A DNA stretch of 30,200 bases from a virus (taxonomy: Duplodnaviria; Heunggongvirae; Uroviricota; Caudoviricetes): the IMG/VR virus record IMGVR_UViG_2778261160_000004; one strand, given 5' to 3'. How positions within the stretch are numbered: position 1 is the stretch's first letter; each line of letters starts with the position of its first letter. Made by a program: the position numbers and the translations under genes. Positions 1 to 21,289 of this stretch are shown here, piece after piece. The notes below the pieces were generated by a model. The model was not told the origin of the DNA, ran no database searches, and saw nothing but the letters and a program-made list of their open reading frames with translations.

Positions 1-19
1 CTATTTGATAAATATTAAA

Positions 20-1300: not shown

Positions 1301-1334
1301 TTCAACTTCTCTCATTAGTTAGTGTGGCTTTTAG

Positions 1335-1586
1335 TCAAGTAAGATGACGTCTTGGTCTCGCTGATGCCTGGCGCTCAATCCAGCGATCAATTTCTTCCAG
1401 GTTGTAAAAGCATGGACTGTTATCCCATGGCATACCGTCATGAGCGACATGCTTATATTCCCTTCCTTCCATAAACGATTTTTCCCGGGCCTTTTTTAAC
1501 GTACCTTTTTTTATTCCTTTCAGCGCAATTAACTGCTCTTCGGATACCCATTTGCCGGGAGAGACAATCATGATTACTTCGCTCAT
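1335..1586 (-). CDS. Small basic protein, putative excisionase/directionality factor
   Basis: 83-aa ORF immediately upstream of and co-oriented with the integrase; size and position typical of xis. No motif-level confirmation. Confidence 0.5.
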   Translation of the reverse strand: MSEVIMIVSPGKWVSEEQLIALKGIKKGTLKKAREKSFMEGREYKHVAHDGMPWDNSPCFYNLEEIDRWIERQASARPRRHLT

Positions 1587-1658
1587 CGATTTCTTTATCT
1601 CTTACATCAGACGAGCGCCGGTTGCAGAATACCAGTCACAACCGGCGACAGTTGAACA

Positions 1659-4130: not shown

Positions 4131-4223
4131 TTTGTTTTAACCTCATGACAGATTTAAGGATGAACAAATCCCTGCCATTGCTGGCATATAAGAATGAAAC
4201 CGGATATTTATTACGGAACTGTT

Positions 4224-4415
4224 TTAAAGACCTGCCGGGATTTCGATATTATCCTGGTTAATAACTTTATCGACCGGGTAACAGTTACCGGGAATTTTCT
4301 GTTCGGTTGCTGCAGTCATACACTCCGGCATTGTCCTGTGAACACTGACTGCAATATCAACTGGCACTCCGGAAACAAGAAAAACTGTCAGAACAAGCGC
4401 AAATGCTGAATTCAT
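4224..4415 (-). CDS. ydfD: YdfD-like small lysis/membrane protein
   Basis: 63 aa from internal ATG (MNSAFALVLTVFLVSG…) with hydrophobic N-terminus. Start overlaps the dicB stop as ATGA (translational coupling). Matches YdfD of K-12 Qin as I recall it. Confidence 0.7.
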   Translation of the reverse strand: MNSAFALVLTVFLVSGVPVDIAVSVHRTMPECMTAATEQKIPGNCYPVDKVINQDNIEIPAGL

Positions 4416-4600
4416 TGTGCACATCCTTTTGGCATCAGACGTAAACGAGCCAGCATTGAAACAATGCATATTTTATTTAATAGCTCCCGTTCTTGTTTTC
4501 TCTTGTTAATGGCATCTTCAGTAAATACAGGGTTACTGATAGTGACACCAATTTCAAAACAACCTTCAGACGTATTAACGTTTGGTAATAACGTTTTCAT
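4412..4600 (-). CDS. dicB: Cell division inhibitor DicB
   Basis: 62-aa product MKTLLPNVNTSEGCFEIGVTISNPVFTEDAINKRKQERELLNKICIVSMLARLRLMPKGCAQ, matching DicB from memory. GAGGA Shine-Dalgarno about 8 nt upstream of ATG at 4600. The ORF track's longer 97-aa call extends upstream without a better start. Confidence 0.82.
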   Translation of the reverse strand: MKTLLPNVNTSEGCFEIGVTISNPVFTEDAINKRKQERELLNKICIVSMLARLRLMPKGCAQ

Positions 4601-4769
4601 TATCGCGTCCTCAACAATGAATTTTGTGATGCAGTGCCTGGTGCCTCCAGGTGACGTTAACCAGTTAACAATTAACGTCGGATACAGAGAATCCACCCAT
4701 AACACTGTTTTTGGTTTTAACTGTTCCGCGTGCGCTTAGCCGCATTCACCGCATAACAAAATTCACTTT

Positions 4770-4828
4770 AAAAACGGCGGCAGAGCAGTCACGGAGTAAA
4801 ACTGATACCGCCAAACGTCACCAGAAAA
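4770..4828 (-). ncRNA. dicF: DicF small regulatory RNA (ftsZ translation inhibitor)
   Basis: Minus-strand sequence UUUCUGGUGACGUUUGGCGGUAUCAGUUUUACUCCGUGACUGCUCUGCCGCC followed by a U-run. Near-identical to DicF of K-12 as recalled; lies just upstream of dicB as in K-12. Exact 5' and 3' ends approximate. Confidence 0.8.
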
Positions 4829-5086
4829 TTGATAACAGAGGGCGTTGCAGCGGGGTTGTCACTTAAGCGTATGGTCAACCTGACAACCCGGTGTCCTCAA
4901 CGGGGAAGGAATAACCCCGCCATACTTACCGCCGCGCCATTTTGCGGGTTGCCACAACCGGAAGCGCACGGTCGAATTAAATTTAACGACACCGTACAGT
5001 GAGACGAACTTCGCCGTGCGCTTTCGTGTTGTGTGCCTGCTTTTAACCACGTCAGGCGAGGTGGTATCCTTAAAATCACCACAGTT

Positions 5087-5662
5087 TTAAGGATTCATTA
5101 AGCAATGTCGCAACCACCAATAAATCCGCTTAAGAACATGAAAATTGATTACTGGTATAAAGCGCTTACAGTTGTTGGCGCTGTGTTGTTTGTCTTTAAT
5201 GGAACGTCTTTTTTTGACAGATATCCCGTTGTTCCATTGGGTTTTTTGTCCTCCGGCATCTTTTTTATTGGTTTGGGGAAGTGGATTAATCACCCTCTCA
5301 AAGTGAGATTTATTGGCCCTGGAGTTTGGACTCGTGGATATAATCGTTCTTCGTGCGCACTCGGTATCATCTTCGACATACTTGGTTGTTTCCTGATTGT
5401 TACAGGAGTCGTCAAGTTCTTCTGATGTAAAACCGCAAATGGGGCACGTAACGGGAATTTTGAAAAGCGTTTCTCCGGGTTCCAGAACAAAATTTTCTGC
5501 GGTCTGATTTTGCTTCTCATATTTGTGCTCCGCGTCATTGTGAGAGCACATTCTTATTCTGAGTGCCTGTTTAAACTCACTGAAGCTGAGAGCTTCTTCG
5601 CCTTCGGCAAGGCCTTCGAAGTATTCTTCGTAAGTCTTTTCCATGATTGTGTCGAAATCCAT
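5087..5662 (-). CDS. Hypothetical early-operon protein (ydfB/ydfC position); coding assignment uncertain
   Basis: Start 1 nt after the ydfA-like stop (TGATATG arrangement). N-terminal half is acidic and protein-like with a C-P-I-C-G motif; C-terminal half is lysine-rich and coincides with a hydrophobic antisense ORF (5105-5425, plus strand), so part may be non-coding. Confidence 0.35.
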   Translation of the reverse strand: MDFDTIMEKTYEEYFEGLAEGEEALSFSEFKQALRIRMCSHNDAEHKYEKQNQTAENFVLEPGETLFKIPVTCPICGFTSEELDDSCNNQETTKYVEDDTECARRTIISTSPNSRANKSHFERVINPLPQTNKKDAGGQKTQWNNGISVKKRRSIKDKQHSANNCKRFIPVINFHVLKRIYWWLRHCLMNP

Positions 5663-5663
5663 A

Positions 5664-5819
5664 TCACTCACCTGAGTTTCTTTCCAGCCAGCGACGGGCA
5701 CCATTTTCGGTTTTAAACGTTTTGCTTTTGGTATACGTCATCGCGGTGAACGTGCCGTCCTGGTTGGGGAACACGCCACATACCAGAGATTCGCTGTTGC
5801 CAAGATCGATAGTATCCAT
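5664..5819 (-). CDS. ydfA: YdfA-like small protein, first gene of the dicB operon
   Basis: 51 aa from internal ATG: MDTIDLGNSESLVCGVFPNQDGTFTAMTYTKSKTFKTENGARRWLERNSGE. GGGGA/GAGG ribosome-binding region upstream. Size and position match ydfA of K-12 Qin (from memory). Confidence 0.65.
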   Translation of the reverse strand: MDTIDLGNSESLVCGVFPNQDGTFTAMTYTKSKTFKTENGARRWLERNSGE

Positions 5820-5932
5820 GCTGACCTCATTTCCCCTTAACGCCGGGGTAGCGGAACTGTTTGCTGAGAACACCGTGCGGTGTCTTGATGGAAAGTAATT
5901 TAGAATAACCTAACATGAGAGGCAAGTGTTTT

Positions 5933-5952
5933 TTGTTAGATTGGTCTAACAA
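5933..5952. promoter_or_regulatory. Palindromic operator (TTGTTAGA-N4-TCTAACAA), putative DicA site in the dicB-operon promoter region
   Basis: Perfect 8-bp inverted repeat with 4-bp spacer, between the dicA stop and the ydfA start. Same half-site recurs at 6445-6462. Confidence 0.6.
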
Positions 5953-5987
5953 AAAGAGTGGGCGCAACTAATCACTTGAAAAGAATG

Positions 5988-6395
5988 TTATTTTATTGAT
6001 TTATTTTTACGCGCTTTAAGCATTTCTTCGAAGAGTTTGTTGAAGTTTTCTACTCTTGCGCGCATTTCAGACAGCAAGGCTTCCTGCTCGGAAGATGGAA
6101 GAGCATCGAATAATTCGATCAATTCTTTGTGGTTGGGAGTTAGCTCTGTTTCCACATGAAGTTCTTGTGCAGGCACTGGTGCCTTGTCTTCGTCACCAAA
6201 CATTAGCCATGTAGGTGAGCACTTCAGAGCATCCGCTAAAGCAAACAATCGTTTTCCGACTGGCTGGGTTTCGTCTCTTTCCCATTGTGAAATTGTGACG
6301 TGAGCAACTCCAGCGAGGCGCGCAGCTTCTCGTTGTGTTAAGCGTAATTCTTTTCGTCGCGCCAGAACTCGCTGGCCTAGGGTTCTTGTATCCAT
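5988..6395 (-). CDS. dicA: CI-type HTH (XRE family) repressor DicA
   Basis: 135 aa. HTH region …LRLTQREAARLAGVAHVTISQWERDETQPVGKRLFALADALKCSPTWLMFGDED… and C-terminal …EMRARVENFNKLFEEMLKAR… closely resemble K-12 DicA as recalled. Divergent from dicC. Confidence 0.9.
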   Translation of the reverse strand: MDTRTLGQRVLARRKELRLTQREAARLAGVAHVTISQWERDETQPVGKRLFALADALKCSPTWLMFGDEDKAPVPAQELHVETELTPNHKELIELFDALPSSEQEALLSEMRARVENFNKLFEEMLKARKNKSIK

Positions 6396-6418
6396 AGTTA
6401 GGTAATTCTAATTTTTCT

Positions 6419-6462
6419 TGACTTAGGTATCCCGCGCACAATAATGTTAGAAAAGTCTAACA
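6419..6462 (+). promoter_or_regulatory. dicC promoter (TTGACT -35, 17-bp spacer, ATAATG -10 region) overlapped by palindromic operator TGTTAGA-N4-TCTAACA at 6445-6462
   Basis: Read directly from the dicA-dicC intergenic sequence. Operator half-sites identical to those at 5933-5952. Confidence 0.55.
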
Positions 6463-6475
6463 AGAGGGGGCTTTG

Positions 6476-6703
6476 ATGCTTAAAGTTGACGCAATTACTT
6501 TTTTTGGCAGCAAAACAAAGCTTGCCAATGCCGCAGGAGTGAGACTGGCAAGTGTTGCTGCTTGGGGGATACTGGTTCCTGAAGGTCGCGCGATGCGTCT
6601 ACAGGAGGCATCTGGCGGGGAGCTTCAGTATGATCCCAAAGTTTATGACGAATATCGTAAGACGAAGCGGGCGGGGCGGTTGAACAATGAAAATCACTCC
6701 TGA
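6476..6703 (+). CDS. dicC: Cro-like regulator DicC
   Basis: About 75 aa, (M)MLKVDAITFFGSKTKLANAAGVRLASVAAWG…YDPKVYDEYRKTKRAGRLNNENHS. AGAGGGGG Shine-Dalgarno 5 nt upstream of ATG 6476; a TTG at 6473 is an alternative start. Divergent from dicA. Confidence 0.85.
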   Translation: MLKVDAITFFGSKTKLANAAGVRLASVAAWGILVPEGRAMRLQEASGGELQYDPKVYDEYRKTKRAGRLNNENHS

Positions 6704-7208
6704 ACAGGCTCGTGAGGCTCTGGATGCCTGGATATGTCGACCAGGAATGACACAGGAGCAGGCGACGATATTAATCACTGAAGCATTCTGGGCTTTGAAA
6801 GAGCGCCCGAACATCGATGTTCAGCGTGTCACATATGAAGGTGGCGCGGTTGATCAGCGAGCGCTTAGCGTTAATCGAGTGAAGATATTCGAACGCTGGA
6901 AGGCTATCGACACCAGGGATAAGCGTGAAAAGTTCACAGCGCTAGTGCCTGCAATTATGGAGGCTATCCGGATTAGTGATTTCAGGTTGTATCGTGAGAT
7001 CAGTGATGGAAAAAGTATTACGTACATGATCGCCGGGTTAAATAAAGAATATGGCGATGTGGTGGAATCTGGACTGCTTTTTGCAGATCCTGCCGTTGTA
7101 GATCGTGAAACTGACGAACTTATAGAAAAAGCAATTGCTTTCAAGCTTGCGTATCGACAGCAATACCAACAAAAAGCTGGATGGAATTATGAGTCTTCTT
7201 TTTGCTGA
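6687..7208 (+). CDS. Hypothetical early protein, possibly a regulator
   Basis: 173-aa ORF overlapping the dicC 3' end and the replication-gene 5' end (operon-like packing). No motif recognised with confidence. Confidence 0.6.
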   Translation: MKITPEQAREALDAWICRPGMTQEQATILITEAFWALKERPNIDVQRVTYEGGAVDQRALSVNRVKIFERWKAIDTRDKREKFTALVPAIMEAIRISDFRLYREISDGKSITYMIAGLNKEYGDVVESGLLFADPAVVDRETDELIEKAIAFKLAYRQQYQQKAGWNYESSFC

Positions 7209-8154
7209 ACGCCCACTGGTTATAAACACGCAGCTGGCAATGAAAATCGGCTTAAACGAAGCCATTGTTTTGCAACAACTGCACTACTGGTTGAGAGATA
7301 CCAACTCCGGTATGGAATGTGATGGTGTTCGCTGGATTTATAACACAACGGAACAATGGCTGGAACAGTTCCCATTCTGGTCAGAGTCAACGTTAAAGCG
7401 CGCGTTTGCAAGTCTGAAAACGCTGGGGCTTTTGCGTTGTGAAAAGCTCAATAAATCAAAGCGCGATATGACCAATTTCTACACGATCAACTATGGGAGC
7501 GAGCTTTTAGATGGTGGCAAATTGAACGAATCCATCGGTTCAAAATGCGCCGCTCCATCAGGTCAAAATGACACGATGGAAGAGGTCAAAATGAAACGCT
7601 CCATTGGTTCAAAACGACCCAATGTCATCGGGTCAAAATGGCCTGATGATCTTACAGAGAATACAACAGAGATTACTACAGAGAATAAAAACACTTTTCG
7701 TCCGGAAGCTTCGCAACCGGACCCGCAGACGACTGAACAGGATTTTTTAACCCGGAACCCCGACGCGGTTGTGTTTAGTGTGAAAAAACGCCAGTGGGGT
7801 AGCAGGGAGGATTTGGCGTGTGCGCAGTGGATTTGGGGGCGGATCGTGAACCTTTACGAACAGGCTGCCAGCGACGATGGAGAGATCATGCGACCAAAAG
7901 AGCCTAACTGGACAGCCTGGGCCAATGACGTGCGCACAATGCGGATGCTGGATGGCAGAAGCCACAGACAAATTTGCGAAATGTTTGGTCGGGTACAGCG
8001 GGATCCATTCTGGGTAAAAAACATCATGAGCCCGTCAAAACTCCGCGAAAAATGGGACGAACTGGTCATCCGCCTGGGACGTTCACCTGTACAGCGTTGT
8101 GTGAATCATATTTCTGAACCGGATACAGAAATTCCGCCTGGCTTCAGGGGATAA
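7189..8154 (+). CDS. Replication initiator (lambda O-like replisome organiser)
   Basis: N-terminal …LVINTQLAMKIGLNEAIVLQQLHYWL… typical of phage replication-initiator N-domains. Contains an internal iteron array (7536-7641), as lambda O contains ori. Start taken at ATG 7189 rather than ORF-track 7135. Confidence 0.75.
   Translation: MSLLFAERPLVINTQLAMKIGLNEAIVLQQLHYWLRDTNSGMECDGVRWIYNTTEQWLEQFPFWSESTLKRAFASLKTLGLLRCEKLNKSKRDMTNFYTINYGSELLDGGKLNESIGSKCAAPSGQNDTMEEVKMKRSIGSKRPNVIGSKWPDDLTENTTEITTENKNTFRPEASQPDPQTTEQDFLTRNPDAVVFSVKKRQWGSREDLACAQWIWGRIVNLYEQAASDDGEIMRPKEPNWTAWANDVRTMRMLDGRSHRQICEMFGRVQRDPFWVKNIMSPSKLREKWDELVIRLGRSPVQRCVNHISEPDTEIPPGFRG
7536..7641. repeat. Iteron array (five copies of GGT(T)CAAAA(T/C)G), putative origin of replication inside the initiator gene
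   Basis: Copies at about 7536-7548, 7558-7570, 7582-7593, 7604-7616 and 7630-7641, in phase with repeated IGSK/GSK peptide motifs. Confidence 0.55.
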
Positions 8155-8194
8155 GTGTTGATTTCAGGTCATGAGGTAATTTTAAGGGGGACTT

Positions 8195-8617
8195 GTGGCA
8201 AAAGTTTTTACACAAGAAGAGCGGGAAAAAATTAAAGGGCAGGTTGTTGAACTCGTACGCCGGAGTGGGCGTGAGACGTTACGGCAACTGGAAGTCAAGA
8301 CAGGTGCGACAAGATATCTGATGAGCGTTCTCGCAAGAGAGCTGGTTGCCAGCGGCGATGTATACAACTCTGGTTACGGGTTATTCCCGTCTGAACAGGC
8401 GCGTAAGGACTGGCAAAATGCCCGTAAAAAGCTCTCAAGGGCAAAGTTGAAGAAACCATCTGCGGTTGATCCGGACCTTATCTGGTCATTACCTGACGGA
8501 GAAATACGTCGCTACGACAGGCGTCAGAACATAATCTGTCGCGAGTGCCGGAAGAGTGAAGTTATGCAGCGCATACTAGCATTCTATCAGGGAAATGCTC
8601 GATATTTATTGAAGTGA
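8195..8617 (+). CDS. Hypothetical protein (replication-module accessory)
   Basis: 140-aa ORF with GTG start preceded by AAGGGGGA. Normal GC composition, co-oriented with the replication gene. Too short for a DnaC/P-like loader. Confidence 0.6.
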   Translation: MAKVFTQEEREKIKGQVVELVRRSGRETLRQLEVKTGATRYLMSVLARELVASGDVYNSGYGLFPSEQARKDWQNARKKLSRAKLKKPSAVDPDLIWSLPDGEIRRYDRRQNIICRECRKSEVMQRILAFYQGNARYLLK

Positions 8618-8869
8618 TGAGATTAAAGTTCATTAGTTCAGATATTGATTGGCTCTTTTGTGGAGTAGGGTAGAGTTAGTGTGTTTGTCTGCTTGGTGCC
8701 AGCAGCGGATATGTTTAACAACAGAAAGCATTCAGCATGGTTAGTGGATTTGCAAAGTGGATTAGGATTTGAGAAACTTTGATGAAGTTGTAAAGCTTGT
8801 TTCTATAAAAATAGAAATTTAACTAATAGTTAAACACACCTCCAGCTTCATTGAAAAGGATTATTAGCT

Positions 8870-9769
8870 ATGATTGATCCACTTATTAGAAACTTACAGA
8901 GTGATATTGCACTACTCCAGCTTTATATCGCGCAACGCAAACAGGCAGGCTTTCATGACATGGAAAGAATAATTGAGTCATTGACCATCTTTATGTTTCG
9001 CGCGCTGAAAATGGGTGAACTGGTAAACATGAATCAGATTAAAGTTAATTTTCCCGCCATTGATTTAGCTGATAATAAAAACATGATAGCAGTTCAAGTT
9101 ACTACGAATGCAAGTCCAGCAAAAATTAAAAAAACTATCGAATCTTTTGAGAAAACAAATGAAATAGGAGAGAGTCTGAAAGATAAATACTCTACTTTAT
9201 ATATTTTTGGTTTTTGTAAAGCCTCAAGATATCTAACTCCAAGTTATTGTAAAATAATCGACCCCAGCTATTTCGTGAATGAACTTTGCGATAAAGCAGA
9301 TGAAGATATGGTCCAGGATATGATTGACGCCATTCGACGCCATCATGATTATACATCATTACATCCATGGAGTGATAAAGATTCACTCGAAATTATACTC
9401 AATATTATTAATCGCAATGCAATAAAACATCGGATGAGTTGCGAAGGCAGTCTGTCTGATATGATCGCTGGTTTAAAAGAAATTAATGAAGTAATTACAA
9501 AAGGAACAATTCAACGTAAGCAACGTTCAAAATCGATATCTGACTTCAAAGATCAAAGCATGGTGAAATTTATGAGAGGTGTAATGGATGATTTGTCTGT
9601 TATTCAAGCCATAGTGAACAAATCTAAAGTTAACCAAGGTGATATGGTTTATATAAGCCATGAAGATATGATTAATATTGATAAATTAAAAGCTAAAATA
9701 GCAAGTGATTCATCAGAGATTGCAAGGCTAAATAATATTGATATAACACTAAATGTTGTTGATTTATAA
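8870..9769 (+). CDS. Orphan cargo protein, possible N-terminal SMEK-like sensor domain; candidate defence/abortive-infection protein
   Basis: 299-aa ORF in visibly AT-rich DNA. N-terminus has the pattern …NFPAIDLADNKNMIAVQVTTNASPAKIKKTIESF… that I associate with SMEK-type domains (recollection, not a search). No catalytic motif recognised in the C-terminal half. Confidence 0.65.
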   Translation: MIDPLIRNLQSDIALLQLYIAQRKQAGFHDMERIIESLTIFMFRALKMGELVNMNQIKVNFPAIDLADNKNMIAVQVTTNASPAKIKKTIESFEKTNEIGESLKDKYSTLYIFGFCKASRYLTPSYCKIIDPSYFVNELCDKADEDMVQDMIDAIRRHHDYTSLHPWSDKDSLEIILNIINRNAIKHRMSCEGSLSDMIAGLKEINEVITKGTIQRKQRSKSISDFKDQSMVKFMRGVMDDLSVIQAIVNKSKVNQGDMVYISHEDMINIDKLKAKIASDSSEIARLNNIDITLNVVDL

Positions 9770-10083
9770 TTGTCGATTTAGCAAAACAGAGAATGCTTTG
9801 AAAATTTCACCGAGAAATATTTATTGTGAACCTCCTTATTGTTTATCGACTTTCACTCTCCGCTCATTGCAGTACTGTCGGAGAAGGCTACTATGTACAA
9901 GAAGCAGCTAACATAAGCGAGCATCACTATTGATATTAGGAAGAGTATATAAAAACTTCATGCTGAACCTTACAAAAGTAGGTAAACCGGCAATGGCCTA
10001 AGTGGCAGGGTCATGTTGATCCGGCACTGCCGAGCTAATAATTAACAAGCAAATCACTCTTTCTAATAATTTGTTGAAATAAA

Positions 10084-10743
10084 CTAAATATGTATATGTT
10101 TACCAACAACCACATATGAACTACCTGCTTTGCTCCATGATTTTATTATTTCTAAATTATTATCTGAGCATATTTTACTTACAGTATCCACATCTAATAA
10201 ACCATAATAGAAAGCATTACGAGAGTTTTGGTATATATACCCATGCAAATGTTTAATACCTCTCTCGTACCTCTTGAAATAAGAACTTTTGTATTGATTG
10301 ACAATCAGTGCTTCACCATCACTCTTTAATAATTCTCTAATCGCACTGAGGACTTTGTGAATTGTGGATTCACATGGAATTGCGGAAAGCACGTTTGCGC
10401 AAAGTATGAAATCATAATGATTTGTTATTTTATCTATATTTTCATAAGAAACGATCTTAGCATTCTTATAGTTATTTATCACGTAATCTGGAATCGTGGT
10501 TTGTACACCTCTGATAATTTGCACTCTTTCTAGTTGTCTTCTCGAATCTAAAAATGTCACAGTTTCAAATTTATTTACTAATTGTTCTGAATATCTAAGT
10601 TTTCCACATCCAAAATCAAGGGCATTGCCATTTTTATTAGTGCTTTCAATCTGTTTACAGAGATAGTTAGATGGCATAGTGTGCGGTTTCGCTGCATTTT
10701 CTGAACGTATGTTTATTCCATTTATTTTGTAATTCAAAATCAA
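10084..10743 (-). CDS. Class-I SAM-dependent methyltransferase-fold protein (not a typical DNA methyltransferase)
   Basis: 219 aa. Motif I ALDFGCGKL, acidic end of beta-2 (TVTFLDS), motif DFILCANVL. No DPPY/NPPY or PC-ENV motifs. Six nt downstream of the membrane-protein gene (operon). Confidence 0.7.
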   Translation of the reverse strand: MILNYKINGINIRSENAAKPHTMPSNYLCKQIESTNKNGNALDFGCGKLRYSEQLVNKFETVTFLDSRRQLERVQIIRGVQTTIPDYVINNYKNAKIVSYENIDKITNHYDFILCANVLSAIPCESTIHKVLSAIRELLKSDGEALIVNQYKSSYFKRYERGIKHLHGYIYQNSRNAFYYGLLDVDTVSKICSDNNLEIIKSWSKAGSSYVVVGKHIHI

Positions 10744-10749
10744 CCTCGT

Positions 10750-11457
10750 TTAAAAAATATTGTTATTGTTAAAGAATTCTTTTATTTTGCTATCAGGTAT
10801 TTGTCTTACTTGGCTTTCTGTTCTTGGTTTAACTGATGCTATGAAAATAAGGAAGTCAAATGCGACAAGAGAAATAATCCACAACCAAAGATTAATTAAA
10901 GAGCCAGTAACAGAGAATATATTTGTTAATTTGGCGATACTTATTATTAAAATAGTAACAAATGCGATTACTGTATGTTCAAAGAAAACCCAAAAGTAAT
11001 AAACTTTGTTCCAGAAAAGTTCAACGTAATGTTTGTCTTTTAACTCTTTAACTTCTGGGTAATACAGTTTACTCATTACCTTGTGAGATTCATCAGTAGT
11101 TAATTTTCTCGTAATGCCTGCAATTTTTGCTAATGGTTTAATAATTAAATGACTATCCCACATCTTCCTTATTCCAATAATTTTTGCTACATTATTATGT
11201 AGATCTAAAGCTCCACTAATTACTGACCAAAAAACTGAAGATGCAATTGGTAATATGCCAAAGGTTAATATCCATTTAATAAATTCCTCGTAGTCTTTAA
11301 CGGGGGGGATATACTTGGCATTAATGCCAACCAATGGCATGTAGCCATAAATGACTAATGATAGGTAAAATATAAATGTAGTAATAAAAGTCGCCTTATG
11401 GAGCATAGGCAACATTTCATTATAACTCTTTGGTGGTTCTAACATTTTACTCTCCAA
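10750..11457 (-). CDS. Integral membrane protein, four predicted transmembrane helices with a roughly 65-aa charged loop
   Basis: 235 aa. Hydrophobic segments at about residues 22-45, 59-84, 151-175 and 180-210. Very AT-rich. First gene of a two-gene operon with the methyltransferase-fold gene. Confidence 0.7.
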   Translation of the reverse strand: MESKMLEPPKSYNEMLPMLHKATFITTFIFYLSLVIYGYMPLVGINAKYIPPVKDYEEFIKWILTFGILPIASSVFWSVISGALDLHNNVAKIIGIRKMWDSHLIIKPLAKIAGITRKLTTDESHKVMSKLYYPEVKELKDKHYVELFWNKVYYFWVFFEHTVIAFVTILIISIAKLTNIFSVTGSLINLWLWIISLVAFDFLIFIASVKPRTESQVRQIPDSKIKEFFNNNNIF

Positions 11458-11886
11458 ACATTCAAAAAAAAGCTAATCTTCTATAATAACGAAATTCAGC
11501 TAGCACAATTAAAGATTAATTGCCACCAATTTCTTGATTTTATAATTTTATCTAAATGTTTTTGATTAATCTAGTCCTAAAAGAAACCTACTGCATAAAT
11601 ATTTATGCTGATGACCCACTCCCTGTTCGTTAACACATAGCAACGTTAGTAATGCATCCTAAGTGATCAATATTTTTGCTAGCTTCATCTGCTCGCTCAA
11701 AGGGAACTAAAATGTTGGCTTGCGTGTGACTTGGCATGTTTAAAGAAGTGCTGGTGGTGACTGGTTGCTGTTTTCCATTTCCACAGAACAAAATCATAGA
11801 AACTATACCCAATAGTTGTATTGAATCACTGACGAGACAGCCTCATATTTATCAGGACTGGTGTACGTCCAATACAGGAGGTTGTG

Positions 11887-11976
11887 GTGCTGGTTCTCAA
11901 ATGTGCGCTGGCTATTGCTGCTGTAATGGCAATTTATTGTCTTGCTGTTGTTCTTATGGATCGCCTTTCTGATTGA
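11887..11976 (+). CDS. Candidate 29-aa hydrophobic peptide (type-I-toxin-like small membrane peptide)
   Basis: Consensus AGGAGG at 11876-11881, GTG start 5 nt downstream, product (M)LVLKCALAIAAVMAIYCLAVVLMDRLSD: one hydrophobic helix and a charged tail. Below the ORF-track length cut-off. Unverified. Confidence 0.25.
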   Translation: MLVLKCALAIAAVMAIYCLAVVLMDRLSD

Positions 11977-12187
11977 TTTCATATTGGCGAGGTAACGGTA
12001 GTTAAGTAGAATGCCTGCGGGTGCTTGAGGCTATCTGCCTCGGGCATGAACACCAAAGGCAGATAGAGAAAAGCCCCAGTTAACATTACGCGTCCTGCAA
12101 GACGCTTAACATTAATCTGAGGCCAATTTCATGCTAGACACATGTAGGTTAGCCTCTTACGTGCCGAAAGGCAAGGAGAAGCAGGCT

Positions 12188-12343
12188 ATGAAGCAGCAAA
12201 AGGCGATGTTAATCGCCCTGATCGTCATCTGTTTAACCGTCATAGTGACGGCACTGGTAACGAGGAAAGACCTCTGCGAGGTACGAATCCGAACCGGCCA
12301 GACGGAGGTCGCTGTCTTCACAGCTTACGAACCTGAGGAGTAA
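12188..12343 (+). CDS. hokD: Hok-family membrane toxin HokD
   Basis: 51 aa: MKQQKAMLIALIVICLTVIVTALVTRKDLCEVRIRTGQTEVAVFTAYEPEE, matching HokD (RelF) as recalled. AAGGAG 8 nt upstream. The ORF-track 70-aa call is an in-frame upstream extension. Confidence 0.85.
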   Translation: MKQQKAMLIALIVICLTVIVTALVTRKDLCEVRIRTGQTEVAVFTAYEPEE

Positions 12344-12350
12344 GAGACCC

Positions 12351-12440
12351 GGCGAGGGAGAAATCCCTCGCCACCTCTGATGTGGCAGGCATCCTCAACG
12401 CACCCGCACTTAACCCGCTTCGGCGGGTTTTTGTTTTTAT
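12351..12440 (+). terminator. hokD 3' stem-loop (GGCGAGGGA-GAAA-TCCCTCGCC, 12351-12372) plus rho-independent terminator (ACCCGC-TTCG-GCGGGT and T-run, 12411-12440)
   Basis: Perfect 9-bp stem with GAAA loop directly after the hokD stop; second hairpin followed by TTTTTGTTTTT. Confidence 0.6.
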
Positions 12441-12559
12441 TTTCAACGCGTTTGAAGTTCTGGACGGTGCCGGAATAGAATCAAAAATACTTAAGTAGCG
12501 CGCAGGGATAAGAGGGATGGTCCCTTAAAGGGGAGAGCTAATTATCCGGAAGGATTCTG

Positions 12560-12811
12560 ATGATGAACATCGAAGAACTGCGTAAAGTTTTTTGTGAAGA
12601 TGGCCTCTATGCTGTGTGCGTTGAAAATGGAAATCTTGTTAGTCATTACCGCATTATGTGTTTGCGAAAGAATGGGGCTGCGTTAATTAATTTTGTGGAT
12701 GCTCGGGTCACGGACGGATTTATCTTGCGCGAAGGTGAGTTTGTCACTTCATTACAGGCATTGAAAGAGATCGGAATAAAAGCTGGCTTTTCTGCTTTTT
12801 CAGGAGAATAA
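12560..12811 (+). CDS. rem: Rem-like small protein
   Basis: 83-aa ORF between hokD and ydfU; position and length match rem of K-12 Qin. Assignment by synteny and size, not sequence recall. Confidence 0.55.
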   Translation: MMNIEELRKVFCEDGLYAVCVENGNLVSHYRIMCLRKNGAALINFVDARVTDGFILREGEFVTSLQALKEIGIKAGFSAFSGE

Positions 12812-12877
12812 ACTCATCTACAATCTTGCGCGGGGCTGAACTCCCGCTGAGTAACACCGTGCCACCGGAGAAAACCG

Positions 12878-13156
12878 ATGGCACGCAACGCAAAATATTA
12901 CAATTCTGATAATTCGCCCGTTCTTGCCTGCACGCACGGGCGGTATTCTCACGCATTCAAGTCTGAATGGTTCCAGCACCCTCCATGCACTGCAGAACAG
13001 GCCGAATGGCTGATTCATTCTTACCGCAGGCGCGGGTTCGAGGTTAAGAAAGCTCTCAGTCTCGACTATCGGCACTGGATAATCTCTGTCAGGCTGCCTT
13101 ATTCCGAACGCCCACCACGTGCGTCCCGCACTTTCCAGCAACGGATCTGGAGGTAA
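12878..13156 (+). CDS. Hypothetical 92-aa protein, translationally coupled to ydfU
   Basis: GGAGAAAACCG then ATG. Its stop lies inside the GGAGG ribosome-binding site of the following gene, whose GTG start is at 13158. Confidence 0.45.
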   Translation: MARNAKYYNSDNSPVLACTHGRYSHAFKSEWFQHPPCTAEQAEWLIHSYRRRGFEVKKALSLDYRHWIISVRLPYSERPPRASRTFQQRIWR

Positions 13157-13157
13157 C

Positions 13158-14207
13158 GTGCGGGTATTACTTAGACCTGTTCTGGTGCCTGAGCTTGGGC
13201 TGGTGGTCCTTAAGCCGGGCCGTGAATCCATACAGATATTTCATAATCCTCGAGTGCTGGTGGAACCGGAACCAAAAAGCATGCGTAATCTGCCATCCGG
13301 AGTCGTTCCTGCCGTTCGCCAGCCGCTGGCGGAAGACAAAACATTGCTGCCGTTTTTTAGTAACGAACGGGTGATTCGTGCTGCTGGCGGCGTTGGCGCA
13401 TTGTCCGACTGGCTATTACGTCATGTTACATCCTGCCAGTGGCCTAATGGCGATTACCATCACACTGAAACAGTCATTCACCGTTATGGTACCGGCGCAA
13501 TGGTGTTGTGCTGGCACTGCGACAACCAACTGCGTGACCAGACATCGGAATCACTGGAGCTGCTTGCTCAACAAAATCTGACAGCATGGGTGATTGACGT
13601 CATCCGTCACGCAATAAGCGGTACGCAGGAGCGGGAATTATCTTTGGCTGAATTATCCTGGTGGGCGGTCTGCAATCAGGTGGTGGATGCACTACCTGAG
13701 GCTGTATCGCGTCGTTCGCTGGGATTACCAGCGGAAAAAATCTGCTCGGTGTACCGCGAAAGCGACATCGTACCGGGAGAGCAGACCGCCACCAGCATAT
13801 TGAAACAACGCACAAAAAATCTTGCACCGTTGCCTTACGCCCACCAGCAACAAAAATCACCACAGGAAAAGACGGTGGTAAGCATCACCGTTGATCCAGA
13901 GTCTCCGGAATCTTTCATGAAGCTGCCTAAACGTCGCCGCTGGGTTAAGGAGAAATACACACGTTGGGTTAAGACACAGCCGTGTGCTTGCTGCGGTATG
14001 CCAGCCGACGATCCGCATCATCTGATTGGTCACGGGCAGGGCGGAATGGGAACAAAAGCACATGATCTCTTTGTGTTGCCTTTGTGCAGAAAGCATCACA
14101 ACGAGCTGCATACGGATACAGTGGCATTTGAAGATAAGTATGGCTCCCAACTGGAGCTGATATTTCGTTTTATCGATCGCGCGCTGGCAATTGGCGTACT
14201 GGCGTAA
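13158..14207 (+). CDS. ydfU: YdfU-like protein (DUF968; NinG/Rap-like C-terminal Cys/His cluster)
   Basis: 349 aa from GTG 13158 (GGAGG upstream). C-terminus …QPCACCGMPADDPHHLIGHGQGGMGTKAHDLFVLPLCRKHHNELH…. Length equals K-12 YdfU as recalled. Confidence 0.75.
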   Translation: MRVLLRPVLVPELGLVVLKPGRESIQIFHNPRVLVEPEPKSMRNLPSGVVPAVRQPLAEDKTLLPFFSNERVIRAAGGVGALSDWLLRHVTSCQWPNGDYHHTETVIHRYGTGAMVLCWHCDNQLRDQTSESLELLAQQNLTAWVIDVIRHAISGTQERELSLAELSWWAVCNQVVDALPEAVSRRSLGLPAEKICSVYRESDIVPGEQTATSILKQRTKNLAPLPYAHQQQKSPQEKTVVSITVDPESPESFMKLPKRRRWVKEKYTRWVKTQPCACCGMPADDPHHLIGHGQGGMGTKAHDLFVLPLCRKHHNELHTDTVAFEDKYGSQLELIFRFIDRALAIGVLA

Positions 14208-14220
14208 GTGGAGAACGAGC

Positions 14221-14973
14221 ATGAACCTTGAAGCCTTACCAAAATATTACTCCCCAAAATCTCCAAAATTGAGCGATGACGCTCCAGCGACAGGCACCGG
14301 TTGTTTAACAATTACGGATGTAATGGCAGCGCAGGGGATGGTGCAGTCGAAAGCACCACTTGGGTTGGCCTTATTTCTGGCAAAAGTTGGTGTTCAGGAC
14401 CCTCAGTTTGCGATTGAAGGCCTGCTAAATTACGCGATGGCACTGGATAACCCGACATTGAACAAATTGAGTGAAGAAATCCGGTTACAGATTATTCCTT
14501 ACCTCGTGAGTTTTGCCTTTGCTGATTACTCCAGGTCTGCGGCAAGTAAGGCTCGCTGTGAGCATTGTTCAGGTACGGGATTTTATAATGTATTGCGCGA
14601 AGTGGTGAAACACTACAGACGCGGGGAATCTGTAATCAAGGAAGAATGGGTGAAGGAACTATGTCAGCATTGCCATGGTAAGGGCGAAGCCAGCACAGCG
14701 TGCAGAGGGTGTAAGGGTAAAGGGATTGTTCTGGATGAAAAAAGAACCCGGTTTCATGGCTTACCGGTATATAAGATTTGTGGGCGTTGTAATGGAAACC
14801 GGTTTAGTCGTTTACCGACCACGCTGGCACGACGTCATGTCCAGAAGCTGGTACCAGACCTGACCGATTATCAGTGGTATAAGGGGTATGCGGACGTCAT
14901 TGGTAAACTGGTAACAAAGTGCTGGCAGGAAGAAGCATACGCGGAAGCGCAATTGAGGAAGGTGACGAGATAA
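14221..14973 (+). CDS. quuQ: Late-gene antiterminator Q homologue
   Basis: 250 aa from ATG 14221 (GTGGAG upstream). Cys-rich zinc-binding region (…CEHCSGTGFY…CQHCHGKGEASTACRGCKGKG…CGRCNG…). Sits directly upstream of the lysis region. Confidence 0.75.
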   Translation: MNLEALPKYYSPKSPKLSDDAPATGTGCLTITDVMAAQGMVQSKAPLGLALFLAKVGVQDPQFAIEGLLNYAMALDNPTLNKLSEEIRLQIIPYLVSFAFADYSRSAASKARCEHCSGTGFYNVLREVVKHYRRGESVIKEEWVKELCQHCHGKGEASTACRGCKGKGIVLDEKRTRFHGLPVYKICGRCNGNRFSRLPTTLARRHVQKLVPDLTDYQWYKGYADVIGKLVTKCWQEEAYAEAQLRKVTR

Positions 14974-15077
14974 ATGATTTTTGCTGAAGATGGCGACATG
15001 ATGTTTGCATTTTTCAAAAAATATGGATAAAATTTTTTCAACGATGGGCTTTGTATACCCGACGTTAAGAAAAAGTA

Positions 15078-15110
15078 GAAAACCCGCTGATGAGCGGGTT
15101 TTGTGCTTTA
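15078..15110 (+). terminator. Rho-independent terminator (CCCGCT-GATG-AGCGGG plus T-run), candidate tR'-like terminator downstream of Q
   Basis: Hairpin and TTTTGTGCTTT read directly; preceded by an A-run, so may act bidirectionally. Confidence 0.5.
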
Positions 15111-15394
15111 AATGGGGCAATGGTAATGTTGAATCTCATCCCGGGACTCATGTCTGTTAACTTATTATTTAGCTGGTGACTTGGTTATTTGCCTGATGTT
15201 TAAAATGTTTTCTTCCAGTACAATGTCCCTAAACACAATGAGTCTGCTTATTATATTATTAGCAGAGCTATTACGGCCAAAGTACAGCATAAGCTTTTAA
15301 AGCCAATCAACCAGTCATCAAGACAGACGGGGTTATTCATAAAAACTCTCCATGTGTGATCCGATGGGGCCTGAAATTAAAGCTTTAATATAGC

Positions 15395-15607
15395 TCATGA
15401 AAGGTAAACATTGGCAGCTGAAGGGCCACGCAGACCATTTATCCGGCAAAATTCCACGCGTAATCCGGTGGTAATTTCTTCTGCATCGCGGAGATTGAGC
15501 GCTGAAACATGAAGCTGGACATCGATACGACCATCGGATGGGGTGATAAGACCCTTGCCGCTTTTGCCGTCAAAGGTTTTGACAATTCCTGTCATTTTAC
15601 GGGACAA
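15395..15607 (-). CDS. cspF: Cold-shock-domain protein, CspF/CspH-type
   Basis: 70 aa: [70 protein letters not shown]. Divergent from cspB as cspF is in K-12 Qin. Symbol by synteny; cspH-like is equally possible. Confidence 0.8.
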
Positions 15608-15907
15608 AAAAATTCCTTAATACTGATAACTTGGCGCACTATACACACGTTCCTGAAGAAAGCTATAGTTTTTTGATGGGGTTGAAGATGGCTGGATGTC
15701 TAAAATAAACATTGCTTCATATGTTCAACTATGCGTTAATGATTGCGTCGGTTTGAAGAACAGACGATATACGAAGTAGTTTACTAAAGCAGTTCTCATT
15801 TCAGGTGTTATTCACTTATTCCTTCTTTGAGTCTCTCCAATTAAGTACGAAGTCGTTTCTGTTATGCAAACCATTTATGCCGAAAGGCTCAAGTTAAGGA
15901 ATGTAGA

Positions 15908-16123
15908 ATGTCAAATAAAATGACTGGTTTAGTAAAATGGTTTAACGCTGATAAAGGTTTCGGCTTTATTTCTCCTGTTGATGGTAGTAAAGATGTGTTT
16001 GTGCATTTTTCTGCGATTCAGAATGATAATTATCGAACCTTATTTGAAGGTCAAAAGGTTACCTTCTCTATAGAGAGTGGTGCTAAAGGTCCTGCAGCAG
16101 CAAATGTCATCATTACTGATTAA
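15908..16123 (+). CDS. cspB: Cold-shock protein CspB
   Basis: 71 aa: [71 protein letters not shown], with RNP1-like KGFGFI and RNP2-like VFVHF motifs. Long upstream leader (about 15740-15907). Confidence 0.9.
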
Positions 16124-16404
16124 AATTCATCGCTCGTCTGTATACGATAACGAAGAAGGCTGATGCCTGAGTAGAGATACGGACAGAGTAGTGAATATTG
16201 GATCTCTTTAATAAAAAGTAAGGAGGTCCAATACATGAAACAATGGCTAGCATATTTGGCAAAATCTTAATCAGGAAAAGTATGCTAACCATTGTGGTGA
16301 AGTGCAGGTTTGCTGCATGAATAGTTTTACAGCAGAAGCTAACTGCTGGCATGGCAAAACAAAGTGCGTAAGTGGATGACTCCCACAAAAAGCACCACAA
16401 TCTC

Positions 16405-16428
16405 AAACCCGCTCAGGCGGGTTTTTTA
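16405..16428 (+). terminator. Rho-independent terminator (AAACCCGC-TCAG-GCGGGTTT plus T-run)
   Basis: Read directly; downstream of cspB. Confidence 0.6.
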
Positions 16429-16486
16429 TTATCTGCTTTAAATATATTATTAAAATATAAAAAATACTTGTTACTAATAAAATCAA

Positions 16487-16657
16487 TCAGGCTACAGCTT
16501 TAAGATTTGTCTGGAATACTTTGTTGCAATGAGGGCAGATCAAAAGGGCACCTTTTTGTACTCTTGAAAAACTGTGTTCTGACTCTTGGGTGCAGTTTGG
16601 GCAGGAACATTTAACGAGATAATTACGGCGTGATTTTGAGTTTTTACGTTCTGACAT
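16487..16657 (-). CDS. Small zinc-ribbon protein (C-x-C-x2-C … C-x2-C)
   Basis: 56 aa from internal ATG (AGGA 9 nt upstream): MSERKNSKSRRNYLVKCSCPNCTQESEHSFSRVQKGALLICPHCNKVFQTNLKAVA. Confidence 0.45.
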   Translation of the reverse strand: MSERKNSKSRRNYLVKCSCPNCTQESEHSFSRVQKGALLICPHCNKVFQTNLKAVA

Positions 16658-16876
16658 AGGCTTTTCCTGTATAAATGGCCGTATACAGTACACTAAATAT
16701 GAAAACATTTCTCGTATTATTATTTTATATATGACTTTCTTTCAAAATAATTACCCACATTTTTAATGTGTATGTTTTTTTAGCGCCGTTGAGAACAACG
16801 TGTGCTGTCAAAACTACCCCGTAGACTCCGATCTTTTCAAACATATTGCACCATCCGTGTACATCGGGGTGAGGAT

Positions 16877-17092
16877 ATGAAATCAATGGATAAGTTAACA
16901 ACAGGTGTTGCCTATGGCACATCGGCGGGTAATGCTGGTTTCTGGGCATTGCAGTTACTCGATAAAGTAACTCCGTCACAGTGGGCTGCAATCGGTGTGC
17001 TGGGTAGCCTGGTTTTTGGCCTGCTGACGTATCTGACAAATCTTTATTTCAAGATTAAAGAAGACAGGCGTAAGGCTGCGAGAGGAGAGTAA
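16877..17092 (+). CDS. essQ: Class II (phage-21 S-type) pinholin with dual-start motif
   Basis: 71 aa: [71 protein letters not shown]. The M-K-S-M dual start is typical of holin/antiholin pairs. Confidence 0.8.
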
Positions 17093-17096
17093 TCCA

Positions 17097-17404
17097 ATGA
17101 CTCAAGACTATGAACTGGTTGTGAAAGGAGTCCGTAATTTTGAGAATAAAGTTACGGTAACTGTAGCCTTACAGGACAAAGAACGCTTTGACGGTGAAAT
17201 TTTTGACCTGGATGTCGCCATGGACCGTGTTGAAGGAGCTGCGCTGGAGTTTTATGAGGCAGCAGCCAGAAGGAGCGTCCGGCAAGTCTTCCTGGAAGTA
17301 GCAGAAAAATTGTCAGAAAAAGTTGAGTCTTATCTGCAGCATCAGTACTCCTTTAAGATTGAAAATCCTGCCAATAAGCACGAGCGTCCTCATCATAAAT
17401 ATCT

Positions 17405-17408
<4 letters not shown>
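17097..17408 (+). CDS. ydfR: YdfR-like protein (DUF1327)
   Basis: 103-aa ORF between holin and endolysin, as in K-12 Qin. Confidence 0.7.
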
Positions 17409-18432
<1,024 letters not shown>

Positions 18433-18794
18433 GGTAATATTAAATCGGAACATTTACATCGCGGAATGTAAAATTTAAATAAAAAGGACTTTTCCATGAG
18501 CCAAAATTCCTCAAATCTTAAGGGTAAGATAAAAGGTCTTAATCAGAATGACACGTTTTATTAATAAATAAAGCTATTCTTTCATTGCTGTGTTTTTCTT
18601 TACAAAAGTAATCCTTGCTATGGGTGGTTAATCATGCGTTAATGGTGTTCTGGTTTGTTACAAATTTATCTGAAGCAGTCATTGTTATAATTTTATTATT
18701 TGTACCTCTTGAGATTTCCTTGTTGGTTTTTCTCTCTGATATTTTTTTTCGGACCATTCTGCCCAAGGGCTAATTTCTTCAAAAGGTAATAATT

Positions 18795-19007
18795 ATGTCT
18801 AACAAAATGACTGGTTTAGTGAAATGGTTTAACCCTGAAAAAGGTTTTGGTTTCATCACGCCGAAAGATGGCAGCAAAGATGTGTTTGTCCATTTCTCAG
18901 CAATTCAGAGCAACGATTTCAAAACATTAACTGAGAATCAGGAAGTTGAATTTGGTATTGAGAACGGACCTAAAGGTCCTGCCGCTGTTCATGTAGTGGC
19001 GCTTTGA
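18795..19007 (+). CDS. cspI: Cold-shock protein CspI
   Basis: 70 aa: [70 protein letters not shown]. Long upstream leader (about 18620-18794). Confidence 0.9.
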
Positions 19008-19212
19008 GGTAGACAATATTACAAACCATATTCACTTTAGATGCCCGTGTTGTCATGGTTCCCAGTATAGAACATCATCTTTTGATGTTTCTGACATGAA
19101 TCCTTTCGGGGCAAAATGTATCTTTTGTAAATCAATGATGATTACATTTGATAATATTTCACAATACTTAAATGCCAGCCGTCTGTCGTTGGATTTAAAA
19201 AAGTGAAAATGA

Positions 19213-19236
19213 AGGCTCCTTCGGGAGCTTTTTTGC
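19213..19236 (+). terminator. Rho-independent terminator (GCTCC-TTCG-GGAGC plus TTTTTT)
   Basis: Read directly. Confidence 0.55.
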
Positions 19237-19278
19237 TTGGTATCTATTCGATGGATACTCACATACTACGGTAACATC

Positions 19279-21279: not shown

Positions 21280-21289
21280 GGTCCTCCCG

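Follow-up and report, generated by a model that had tools for sequence, protein, structure and literature searches.

Temperate phages are known to carry variable cargo, consisting of morons and defence genes, at hotspots that include those of P2 and P4 (Rousset et al. 2022, PMC9122126), and Mrr-like nuclease effectors are likewise known. In the short-Argonaute systems of clade S2B, APAZ is fused to SMEK/Mrr-like domains, which are the nuclease effectors, either demonstrated or tentatively assigned (PMC10810196, PMC12738770), and a single-protein defence nuclease combining Mrr with a beta-propeller was described by Vassallo et al. 2022 (bioRxiv 10.1101/2022.05.12.491691). With regard to two-gene systems, a HAD-like hydrolase encoded together with a transmembrane (TM) protein (Rst_Hydrolase-3TM) in the P4 hotspot has been validated as a defence active against T7 (PMC9122126). 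The present analysis concerns a stretch of 30,200 nucleotides (nt), the whole of which is referred to as the window, from the Caudoviricetes record IMGVR_UViG_2778261160_000004 of IMG/VR. The window represents a Qin-like, lambdoid prophage integrated at the site of Qin in Escherichia coli K-12, and it contains an AT-rich island with three genes: gene A, coding for a SMEK/Mrr-like protein, and genes C and B, coding for a four-TM membrane protein and a divergent S-adenosylmethionine (SAM)-dependent methyltransferase (MTase), respectively. The island is horizontally acquired cargo in a polymorphic slot, and it is a composite of two modules, gene A and the C-B pair, which probably serve the host against phages.

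A cargo island in a variable prophage slot

The locus is organised as follows (window coordinates, strand in brackets).

8195..8617 (+): DUF977/Ren-like gene, left flank and last conserved gene before the slot (Pfam DUF977, 106 bits; PHROG 142 'Ren-like exclusion protein', 3.4e-46)
8687..11611: three-gene block, present as one unit also in an unrelated replicon (blastn to pK820-1)
8713..11689: island proper, an AT-rich insertion of 2.98 kb into the Qin-like backbone, delimited by GC content and homology breakpoints, and present in 151/5426 E. coli genomes
8870..9769 (+): gene A, 299 amino acids (aa), with an N-terminal SMEK/Mrr-like PD-(D/E)xK-type nuclease domain (about residues 5-140) and a family-specific helical C-terminal domain (about residues 140-299)
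9770..10083: spacer at the module junction, where genes A and B converge (homology to loci with the SMEK gene only ends at 9756, homology to loci with the C-B pair only starts at 10101)
10084..10737 (-): gene B, 217 aa, most likely start TTG 10737; divergent class I SAM-dependent MTase of the small-molecule/protein type
10750..11445 (-): gene C, which opens the C-B operon, 231 aa, most likely start ATG 11445 with the ribosome-binding site GGAGAG; predicted four-TM inner-membrane protein with a cytoplasmic helical insert of about 65 aa
11446..11611 (-): upstream region of the C-B operon, presumed promoter, which travels with the block (inside the 2960-nt homology to pK820-1)
12019..12343 (+): right flank with the full hok/sok locus, a type I toxin-antitoxin system (sok RNA matched at 12019-12193; hokD coding sequence 12188-12343)

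The initial annotation placed an AT-rich accessory island at 8620-12130, and the composition bears this out. Sliding-window GC content is 0.29-0.34 over about 8750-11750 versus 0.47-0.51 on either side, the lowest in the window; it amounts to 0.322 for the island (8713-11689), 0.473 for the left flank (6000-8712), 0.495 for the right flank (11690-14700) and 0.443 for the whole window. Codon usage differs just as sharply, with the GC content of third codon positions (GC3) being 0.25-0.28 in the three island genes versus 0.42-0.55 in the O-like replication gene, the DUF977 gene, hokD, ydfU and ydfT, while rem, with 0.37, lies below the other neighbouring backbone genes. The A/T run AAAAATATTGTTATTGTTAAAGAATTC is located at about 10753-10779. 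The extent first proposed does contain the island but is too wide, chiefly on the right: homology with other prophages possessing the DUF977 gene and hokD stops at about 8712 (or earlier, at 8596) and restarts at 11675-11693 (or later, at 11946-11999). Because the backbone homology restarts at about 11675-11693, the stretch 11690-12130 is prophage backbone upstream of hok/sok and not part of the island. Exactly three intact open reading frames (ORFs) longer than 200 aa occur within the island, at 8870-9769 (+), 10084-10743 (-) and 10750-11457 (-).

The whole island, searched by megablast with 8750-11800, is present in 151 of the 5426 complete E. coli genomes, in 146 of them at an identity of at least 99%; another 707 genomes match only the last ~110 nt of that query, at 87-88%. 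The flanks are commoner, a query of 8400-12400 matching 4824 of these genomes and the DUF977 gene alone 4067. Six other sampled prophages, chosen across the range of identity, hold six different cargos between DUF977 and hokD, i.e. a 269-aa hypothetical protein; QueH; a 595-aa DUF7380/DUF4209 protein; AbiH, a named abortive-infection gene, with a 463-aa protein; small nin-like ORFs; and an alpha/beta hydrolase. Together with the island, seven different cargos are found in seven prophages. It is clear that the block is horizontally acquired cargo in a polymorphic slot formed by the DUF977/Ren-like gene, the cargo and hok/sok, which agrees with the initial view of a variable hotspot; with 151 carriers against more than 4000 genomes having the flanks, the three genes are not conserved backbone of such prophages. 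In its conserved flanks, its mutually exclusive and compositionally foreign cargos and the AbiH of sister prophages, the slot resembles the cargo hotspots of temperate phages (lambda ren/nin, P2 and P4).

With regard to individual occupants and carriers, the 463-aa protein adjoining AbiH in E. coli MS6198 (L024 5185-7574) has no PADLOC match, and the 595-aa DUF7380/DUF4209 protein occupies the same slot in strain Seattle 1946 (L023 5621-7408). In one carrier of the island, E. coli 14EC047 (NZ_CP024155.1), the island is interrupted by IS1A. Two short contigs of metagenome-assembled genomes in GTDB, one binned as 'uncultured Haemophilus sp.' (L029) and the other as 'Candidatus Scatousia excrementigallinarum' (L030), are ~99% identical to the E. 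coli island and look like mis-binned E. coli contigs, not real occurrences in those taxa.

Two modules: gene A and the C-B operon

The stretch 8687-11611 forms a single blastn alignment, with 87.8% identity over 2960 nt, with the IncHI2 plasmid pK820-1 of Citrobacter koseri (L036 8324-11281), in which the flanks are different (an integrase, a recombinase, DUF4145 and an AbiTii homologue). Because it aligns whole to this plasmid, the block may be regarded as a small composite island moved as a unit at least once. Its parts also occur separately. Comparison by blastn with the sampled loci demonstrated that the SMEK-only islands of Enterobacter align to 8686/8691-9756, i.e. gene A with ~180 nt upstream, that the SMEK-only loci of Pseudomonas align to 8868-9735, i.e. 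gene A alone, and that the pair-only loci (P2-like prophages and others) align to 10101-11456; the stretches 9757-10100 and 11457-11690 are common to neither the SMEK-only nor the pair-only loci. Homologues of A without the C-B pair are found in Enterobacter, Pseudomonas, Vibrio, Cupriavidus and Citrobacter, and homologues of C without SMEK in P2-like prophages, in a retron/relaxase island and in Pseudomonas. The block is thus a composite of two modules, each found elsewhere without the other. A single obligate three-gene functional unit was rejected since the modules occur apart, although they travel together in two replicons. Transposon-like ends were also rejected, repeats at the block ends, whether direct or inverted, not exceeding what chance produces in AT-rich DNA.

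None of the three genes is disrupted, and all evolve under purifying selection, the ratio of nonsynonymous to synonymous substitution rates (dN/dS) ranging from 0.09 to 0.35. Comparison with pK820-1 gives values of 0.20 (A), 0.35 (B) and 0.11 (C), comparison with more distant copies values of 0.09-0.14; for gene A overall they are 0.14-0.20. The three genes had at first been described as unrelated to each other, which does not hold for two of them, since C-B is a strictly conserved operon and the SMEK gene an independent module. The defence-system search suggested at that stage was run with PADLOC only (PADLOC-DB v2.0.0, 2023): neither module is called as a known system, and none of A, B and C has a full-length match to the system components of that library.

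The N-terminal part of protein A is matched by SMEK_N at residues ~5-120, both in Pfam (PF21941, 80.5 bits, cut-off 27) and in NCBIfam (NF033859, 106.7 bits, cut-off 30). Among solved structures it has a single relative, the 'Mrr domain from Kordia jejudonensis Mrr-APAZ pAgo' (E 8.6e-8), with which it has the core NFPAIDLAD...IAxQ(V/I)T in common. Foldseek of A against the PDB gave nothing at E<=1e-3, the weak matches being to type II restriction endonucleases (E 1.4-2). In an alignment of 60 sequences, residues E36, N60, D65 (in PAID), Q76, T78 and K85 are invariant in the nuclease domain, and an AlphaFold2 model (pLDDT 86) positions E36, D65, Q76, T78 and K85 on the alpha-beta-beta-beta-alpha elements expected for the PD-(D/E)xK fold. 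The C-terminal ~160 aa are helical, with P166, D169, R182, E192, G193 and K221 invariant. A profile search with this domain retrieves solely proteins of ~300 aa that also possess SMEK_N, and domain shuffling was rejected because the domain is found just in SMEK_N fusions. It also contains an Rx4-6H string (R182-N-A-I-K-H187), of which R182 is invariant and H187 at least 90% conserved; an HEPN RNase was therefore tried as an assignment, but neither HEPN profiles nor HEPN folds gave a match placing the motif where a helix begins, leaving it a low-probability idea.

The full-length architecture of A is kept at 31-100% identity in 108 clusters from Enterobacterales, Pseudomonas, Vibrio, Xanthomonas, Cupriavidus and others, and among Proteobacteria it persists where identity has fallen to ~30-42%. 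The homologues are stand-alone genes inside defence islands: the Citrobacter homologue lies between Lamassu-type genes and AAA_15/AAA_21 ATPases, that of Vibrio adjoins an Abi_alpha gene, that of Cupriavidus a helicase/DUF87 cluster and SymE, and that of Pseudomonas a DRT-type SLATT protein, and the Enterobacter homologue is found among integrases, resolvases and an AAA_13 protein. No Argonaute gene is present in the island or beside the A homologues in eight sampled contexts. Downstream of the SMEK homologue of Pseudomonas CP145799.1 (L008 6958-9736) there are a 219-aa protein with an R-N-x-x-x-H (HEPN-like) string, a SLATT_5/DRT-type SLATT membrane protein and a family-less 309-aa protein; this three-gene stretch may be another uncharacterised defence cluster.

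Of the described proteins, SMEK/Mrr-APAZ of the clade S2B short prokaryotic Argonaute (pAgo) system of Kordia jejudonensis has a homologous N-terminal nuclease domain and the same core motif, whereas gene A lacks both APAZ and an Argonaute partner, possesses its own helical C-terminal domain and stands alone. Nuclease activity is reported, in work cited by PMC10810196, for a SMEK-APAZ/pAgo complex only and not for the subfamily of A. The protein of Vassallo et al., with Mrr and a beta-propeller, resembles A in being one polypeptide with an Mrr-like nuclease and a non-catalytic C-terminal module, carried by E. coli mobile elements, but the C-terminal domain of A is predicted to be a helical bundle instead of a beta-propeller. 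None of the PADLOC PD-T4, PD-T7 and PD-lambda models matches A.

In the second module, the start of C is most likely ATG 11445 (231 aa, as in RefSeq) and that of B most likely TTG 10737, 12 nt past the stop codon of C. The 197-aa form of B given in RefSeq is probably too short, because the invariant IRSENAAK block lies in the first 22 residues of the longer form. A consensus promoter scan of 11446-11611 gave no strong match; this upstream region is not common to the P2-like or Pseudomonas loci, where homology stops at 11456. Protein C has no match in Pfam, NCBIfam, PHROGs or PADLOC. Its hydrophobic segments are at about 20-41, 58-80, 148-172 and 181-208, with a K/R-rich insert of ~65 aa between TM2 and TM3, and the positive-inside rule would put the N- and C-termini as well as the insert in the cytoplasm. 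An exhaustive hidden Markov model search of 1.84 billion representatives yielded 188 relatives of C at E<=1e-3; among those listed almost all have ~230 aa, apart from a few short fragments, and a Pfam domain was detected in 0 of 10 tested. Residues H83, R93, W96, Y129, H139, W152 and E156, the last inside TM3, are invariant or near-invariant. A SLATT-like assignment of C was rejected, since it has no sequence similarity to the SLATT_5 neighbour of the Pseudomonas SMEK gene and no Pfam match.

Protein B is matched by Pfam Methyltransf_23/12 and by TehB with 25-35 bits; neither its motif I (LDFGCGKLRYS) nor the IRSENAAK block near the N-terminus varies among 8 homologues, and the nearest solved structures are distant (a type-11 MTase, E 0.011; TehB, E 0.042). 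The PADLOC models for DNA MTases (MTase_II and orphan-MTase) do not match B, a real C5 MTase neighbour reaching 1.7e-111 in the same library. It is likely that B methylates a protein, a lipid or a small molecule, and unlikely that it methylates DNA.

The MTase homologue directly follows the C homologue in 10/10 loci (tblastn). In the pair copies from Pseudomonas and Saccharophagus, C is 31-40% and B 40-48% identical, and on plasmids of Bradyrhizobium, Lactiplantibacillus (L. plantarum) and Lentilactobacillus (L. kefiri) an MTase of 30-34% identity is preceded by a C-family protein (hmmsearch 8e-68, 8e-23 and 7e-7). C-B is a conserved two-gene operon, its gene order being kept across Gamma- and Alphaproteobacteria and Lactobacillaceae in all sampled contexts. 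The pair has Hachiman HamA/HamB directly upstream in one locus (L032), Lamassu LmuA/C/B directly upstream, plus integrases, in another (L035), a C5 DNA methyltransferase and an HD-CE protein in a third (L034), and elsewhere a retron RT-Toprim in a relaxase island (L018), CBASS and ImmA (L038), Sau3AI restriction-modification (L039) and a TIR protein (L040). It is also found at the ogr end of P2-like prophages of Enterobacter and Providencia, and at the icd end of an e14-like element, where it adjoins mcrA. The P2-like copies sit after ogr, outside the published P2 hotspot (PMC9122126). The MTase copy of Saccharophagus sp. K07 (L033 5685-6320) has an internal stop or frameshift and may be a pseudogene or reflect an error of assembly.

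Of the validated systems found, Rst_Hydrolase-3TM (PMC9122126) comes closest to C-B in architecture, being likewise a small operon for a soluble enzyme and a multi-pass membrane protein that occurs in hotspots of prophages and in defence islands; CBASS and Pycsar, with their TM effectors, also compare in combining an enzyme with a TM protein. Neither the DUF977-to-hok/sok slot as a named hotspot, nor a stand-alone SMEK-plus-helical-domain defence protein, nor the TM and MTase pair as a system was found described in the papers covered, although earlier descriptions may exist.

Proposed function and competing explanations

From the genomic association it appears more likely than not that both modules are anti-phage or superinfection-exclusion cargo provided by the prophage to its host. 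For C-B this reading is suggested by the fact that the pair adjoins Hachiman, Lamassu, CBASS, restriction-modification, retron and TIR genes. Gene A would be a single-protein nuclease effector, the Mrr/SMEK-type PD-(D/E)xK domain of which would cut nucleic acid, while the part of APAZ/pAgo, that of a sensor or autoinhibitory module licensing cleavage during infection, would be taken by its helical C-terminal domain. C-B would be a two-component membrane system in which the enzymatic or sensing role falls to the cytoplasmic class I SAM MTase B, and the four-TM protein C, with the invariant E156 in TM3 and the conserved cytoplasmic insert, acts as its membrane partner or effector; triggering might lead to membrane damage (abortive infection) or to a block of phage DNA entry. 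A further-reaching proposal, which is put forward only tentatively, is that C-B is a previously unrecognised multi-phylum anti-phage system with a methylation-controlled membrane effector, and the SMEK-plus-helical protein a second new single-gene nuclease defence family. Under this proposal the effector could be held off as long as the TM partner, or a small ligand, is constitutively methylated, and would fire when the phage perturbs SAM pools or methylation, e.g. by phage SAM lyases; in another variant, the MTase could mark a phage component at the membrane.

Several observations weigh against a defensive role. The whole case for it is one of genomic association. The best PADLOC match of A is an Argonaute-associated 'REase' (Aga_REase, 9e-21), covering profile positions 9-143 of 463. 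Across the A family the canonical (D/E)xK lysine is an invariant threonine (QxT, QVT here), and the active site is for that reason plausible but non-canonical; K85 on the next helix may stand in for the motif lysine, and nuclease activity of A is no more than plausible. Fold searches with C, and with the C-terminal domain of A, gave only generic helical-bundle matches. The family matches of B are weak and of the small-molecule kind (Methyltransf_23/12, TehB, UbiG-like and PmtA-like), fitting a metabolic or resistance role as well; in PADLOC it has only a weak match to mad2 (6.7e-5), and C has no model there. In 50,697 deposited phage genomes no full-length match to A, B or C was found: B and C have none at all, and the one match of A is a partial SMEK_N, over 30% of its length, at the end of a Klebsiella prophage record. 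Finally, AT-rich islands in E. coli are commonly silenced by H-NS, so that expression in the lysogen is not assured.

Among the alternatives, the one that survives best, though it is considered unlikely, is that the cargo is beneficial without being anti-phage: C-B would modify or detoxify a small molecule, lipid or envelope component (a toxic anion as with TehA/TehB, a quinone or a phospholipid), and the SMEK gene would be an unrelated selfish or regulatory gene. The best family matches of B, to TehB, UbiG-like, PmtA-like and generic small-molecule MTases, are in line with this, and so is the resemblance to the tellurite resistance pair tehAB, in which a membrane protein gene likewise stands beside the gene of a TehB-like class I SAM MTase; furthermore, QueH and an alpha/beta hydrolase occupy the same hotspot in other prophages, and A is called 'regulator' in old annotations. 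The MTase matches are, however, all far under the equivalog cut-offs (TehB 25-29 bits versus 218 and 303), and C, with four TM segments and 231 aa, has no similarity to TehA/SLAC1, a type of 10-TM channel. Across three phyla the genomic company of the pair consists of defence genes (Hachiman, Lamassu, CBASS, restriction-modification, retron and TIR), not of stress or metabolic genes, and A, for its part, is located within defence islands and has a nuclease core that is conserved.

That the three genes constitute one restriction-modification-like system, with B methylating the host DNA, A restricting unmethylated DNA and C anchoring or regulating them, seems very improbable. A nuclease and an MTase are indeed co-located, the three genes travel together in the E. 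coli prophage and the Citrobacter plasmid at 88% identity, and the weak match of B is to mad2 of the methylation-associated MADS system. Yet B exhibits small-molecule class I signatures only, without a match to MTase_II or orphan-MTase, and a DPPY/NPPY-type motif is not visible in its conserved blocks; moreover, A and the C-B pair are separate in most contexts, and here they are convergent with separate upstream regions.

Marginally less credible still is decaying, silenced passenger DNA of no current function. The extreme AT-richness of a kind typically bound by H-NS in E. coli, the position at the site of a cryptic prophage, the IS1 inside the block in one carrier and the internal stop in the Saccharophagus MTase copy would all suit such a fate, but they stand against three intact ORFs, a block at least 99% identical in 146 genomes, dN/dS of 0.09-0.35 versus diverged copies and many residues invariant across phyla. 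As for gene A being a remnant or part of a short pAgo system (SMEK/Mrr-APAZ with pAgo), for which its best PADLOC match and its sole solved relative, the Mrr domain of a pAgo partner, would speak, this can practically be dismissed, the PADLOC match being confined to the nuclease domain, the C-terminal 160 aa being a different domain seen solely with SMEK_N, and no pAgo-like ORF being present in the island or beside the sampled homologues.

Prophage setting and meaning of the cargo

As the initial annotation stated, the island lies between the replication module and hokD, with the O-like replication gene (7135-8154; PHROG 391, 2e-92) and the DUF977/Ren-like gene (8195-8617) on the left and hokD (12188-12343) on the right. 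In strain SY3626 a near-identical locus is found between rspA/ynfA and the Qin late genes (rem, ydfU, ydfT, cspF/B, essD, rrrQ, cspI, gnsB, ydfO and nohA). The backbone is collinear by blastn with Qin of K-12, window positions 1-1179, 3364-5044, 5562-6106 and 6383-6966 matching intQ through dicC/ydfX, and 12174-20494 matching hokD through ynfO at 98.9%; HokD is 100% and Rem 98.8% identical. The order of K-12 genes as given at the outset is correct (rem-hokD-relE-relB-ydfV-flxA), and no RelB- or RelE-like ORF was found here: tblastn with the K-12 proteins RelB, RelE, YdfV, FlxA and YdfW against the window gave no significant match, the best one (E 0.016) being a chance match of 21 residues elsewhere, and remnants of relBE or flxA/ydfV were thereby rejected. 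That the island sits where K-12 carries relBE is right as to the content of the K-12 interval only. The stretch without a K-12 counterpart is 6967-12173, spanning most of the cII-like gene, the O-like gene, the DUF977/Ren-like gene, the island and the sok region, and K-12 has ydfW-flxA-ydfV-relB-relE in its place. Because this difference is larger than the island, relBE is not a simple allelic alternative in the same slot.

On the right flank, the sok match (Rfam RF01794, 118.3 bits, gathering score 59) lies directly upstream of hokD and overlaps its start, and HokD is matched by Pfam HOK_GEF with 81.6 bits. Homology with K-12 begins at 12174, 14 nt before the hokD ATG; the sok region retained here is missing in K-12, where relBE stands in its place, which would fit hokD being an orphaned toxin gene in that strain. 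Between the island and sok, the backbone spacer contains a putative gene, a Cys-rich ORF of 78 codons (...CTSNTGGCGAGSQMCAGYCCCNGNLLSCCCSYGSPF) at 11736-11972 (+), kept in sister prophages at 94-98% DNA identity with GTG as the start codon there, and frameshifted in one copy.

The prophage is much less decayed than Qin of K-12. The stretches 1180-3363 and 20495-25411 have no counterpart in the latter; an 823-aa ORF is located at 1659-4130 (-), the ORF in the equivalent position being annotated as an exonuclease in sister prophages, and an 831-aa ORF at 21987-24482. Other AT-rich patches of the same prophage (GC 0.32-0.40) are at 15000-17000, 18250-20750 and 27500-28750, of which the first two should, from the alignment with Qin of K-12, correspond to the cspB/cspF and cspI-to-ydfO regions.

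The island offers two candidates that can be cloned directly, a single gene of 0.9 kb and a two-gene operon of 1.4 kb, each with its native upstream region; should neither of them act against phages, it would be no more than a prophage moron island of the ordinary kind. The TM-MTase pair deserves attention for being kept together from E. coli to Lactobacillaceae, for its position beside known defence genes and for a membrane component outside the described families and folds; if the proposal is true, defence by way of a SAM methyltransferase not acting on DNA would be a new enzymatic logic in bacterial immunity. The SMEK protein, in turn, would demonstrate that an effector domain of Argonaute systems is usable with a different sensor. 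The cargo slots of prophages are a productive source of new immune systems, and the one between the DUF977/Ren-like gene and hok/sok, in the very common Qin/lambdoid prophages of E. coli, can be mined systematically.

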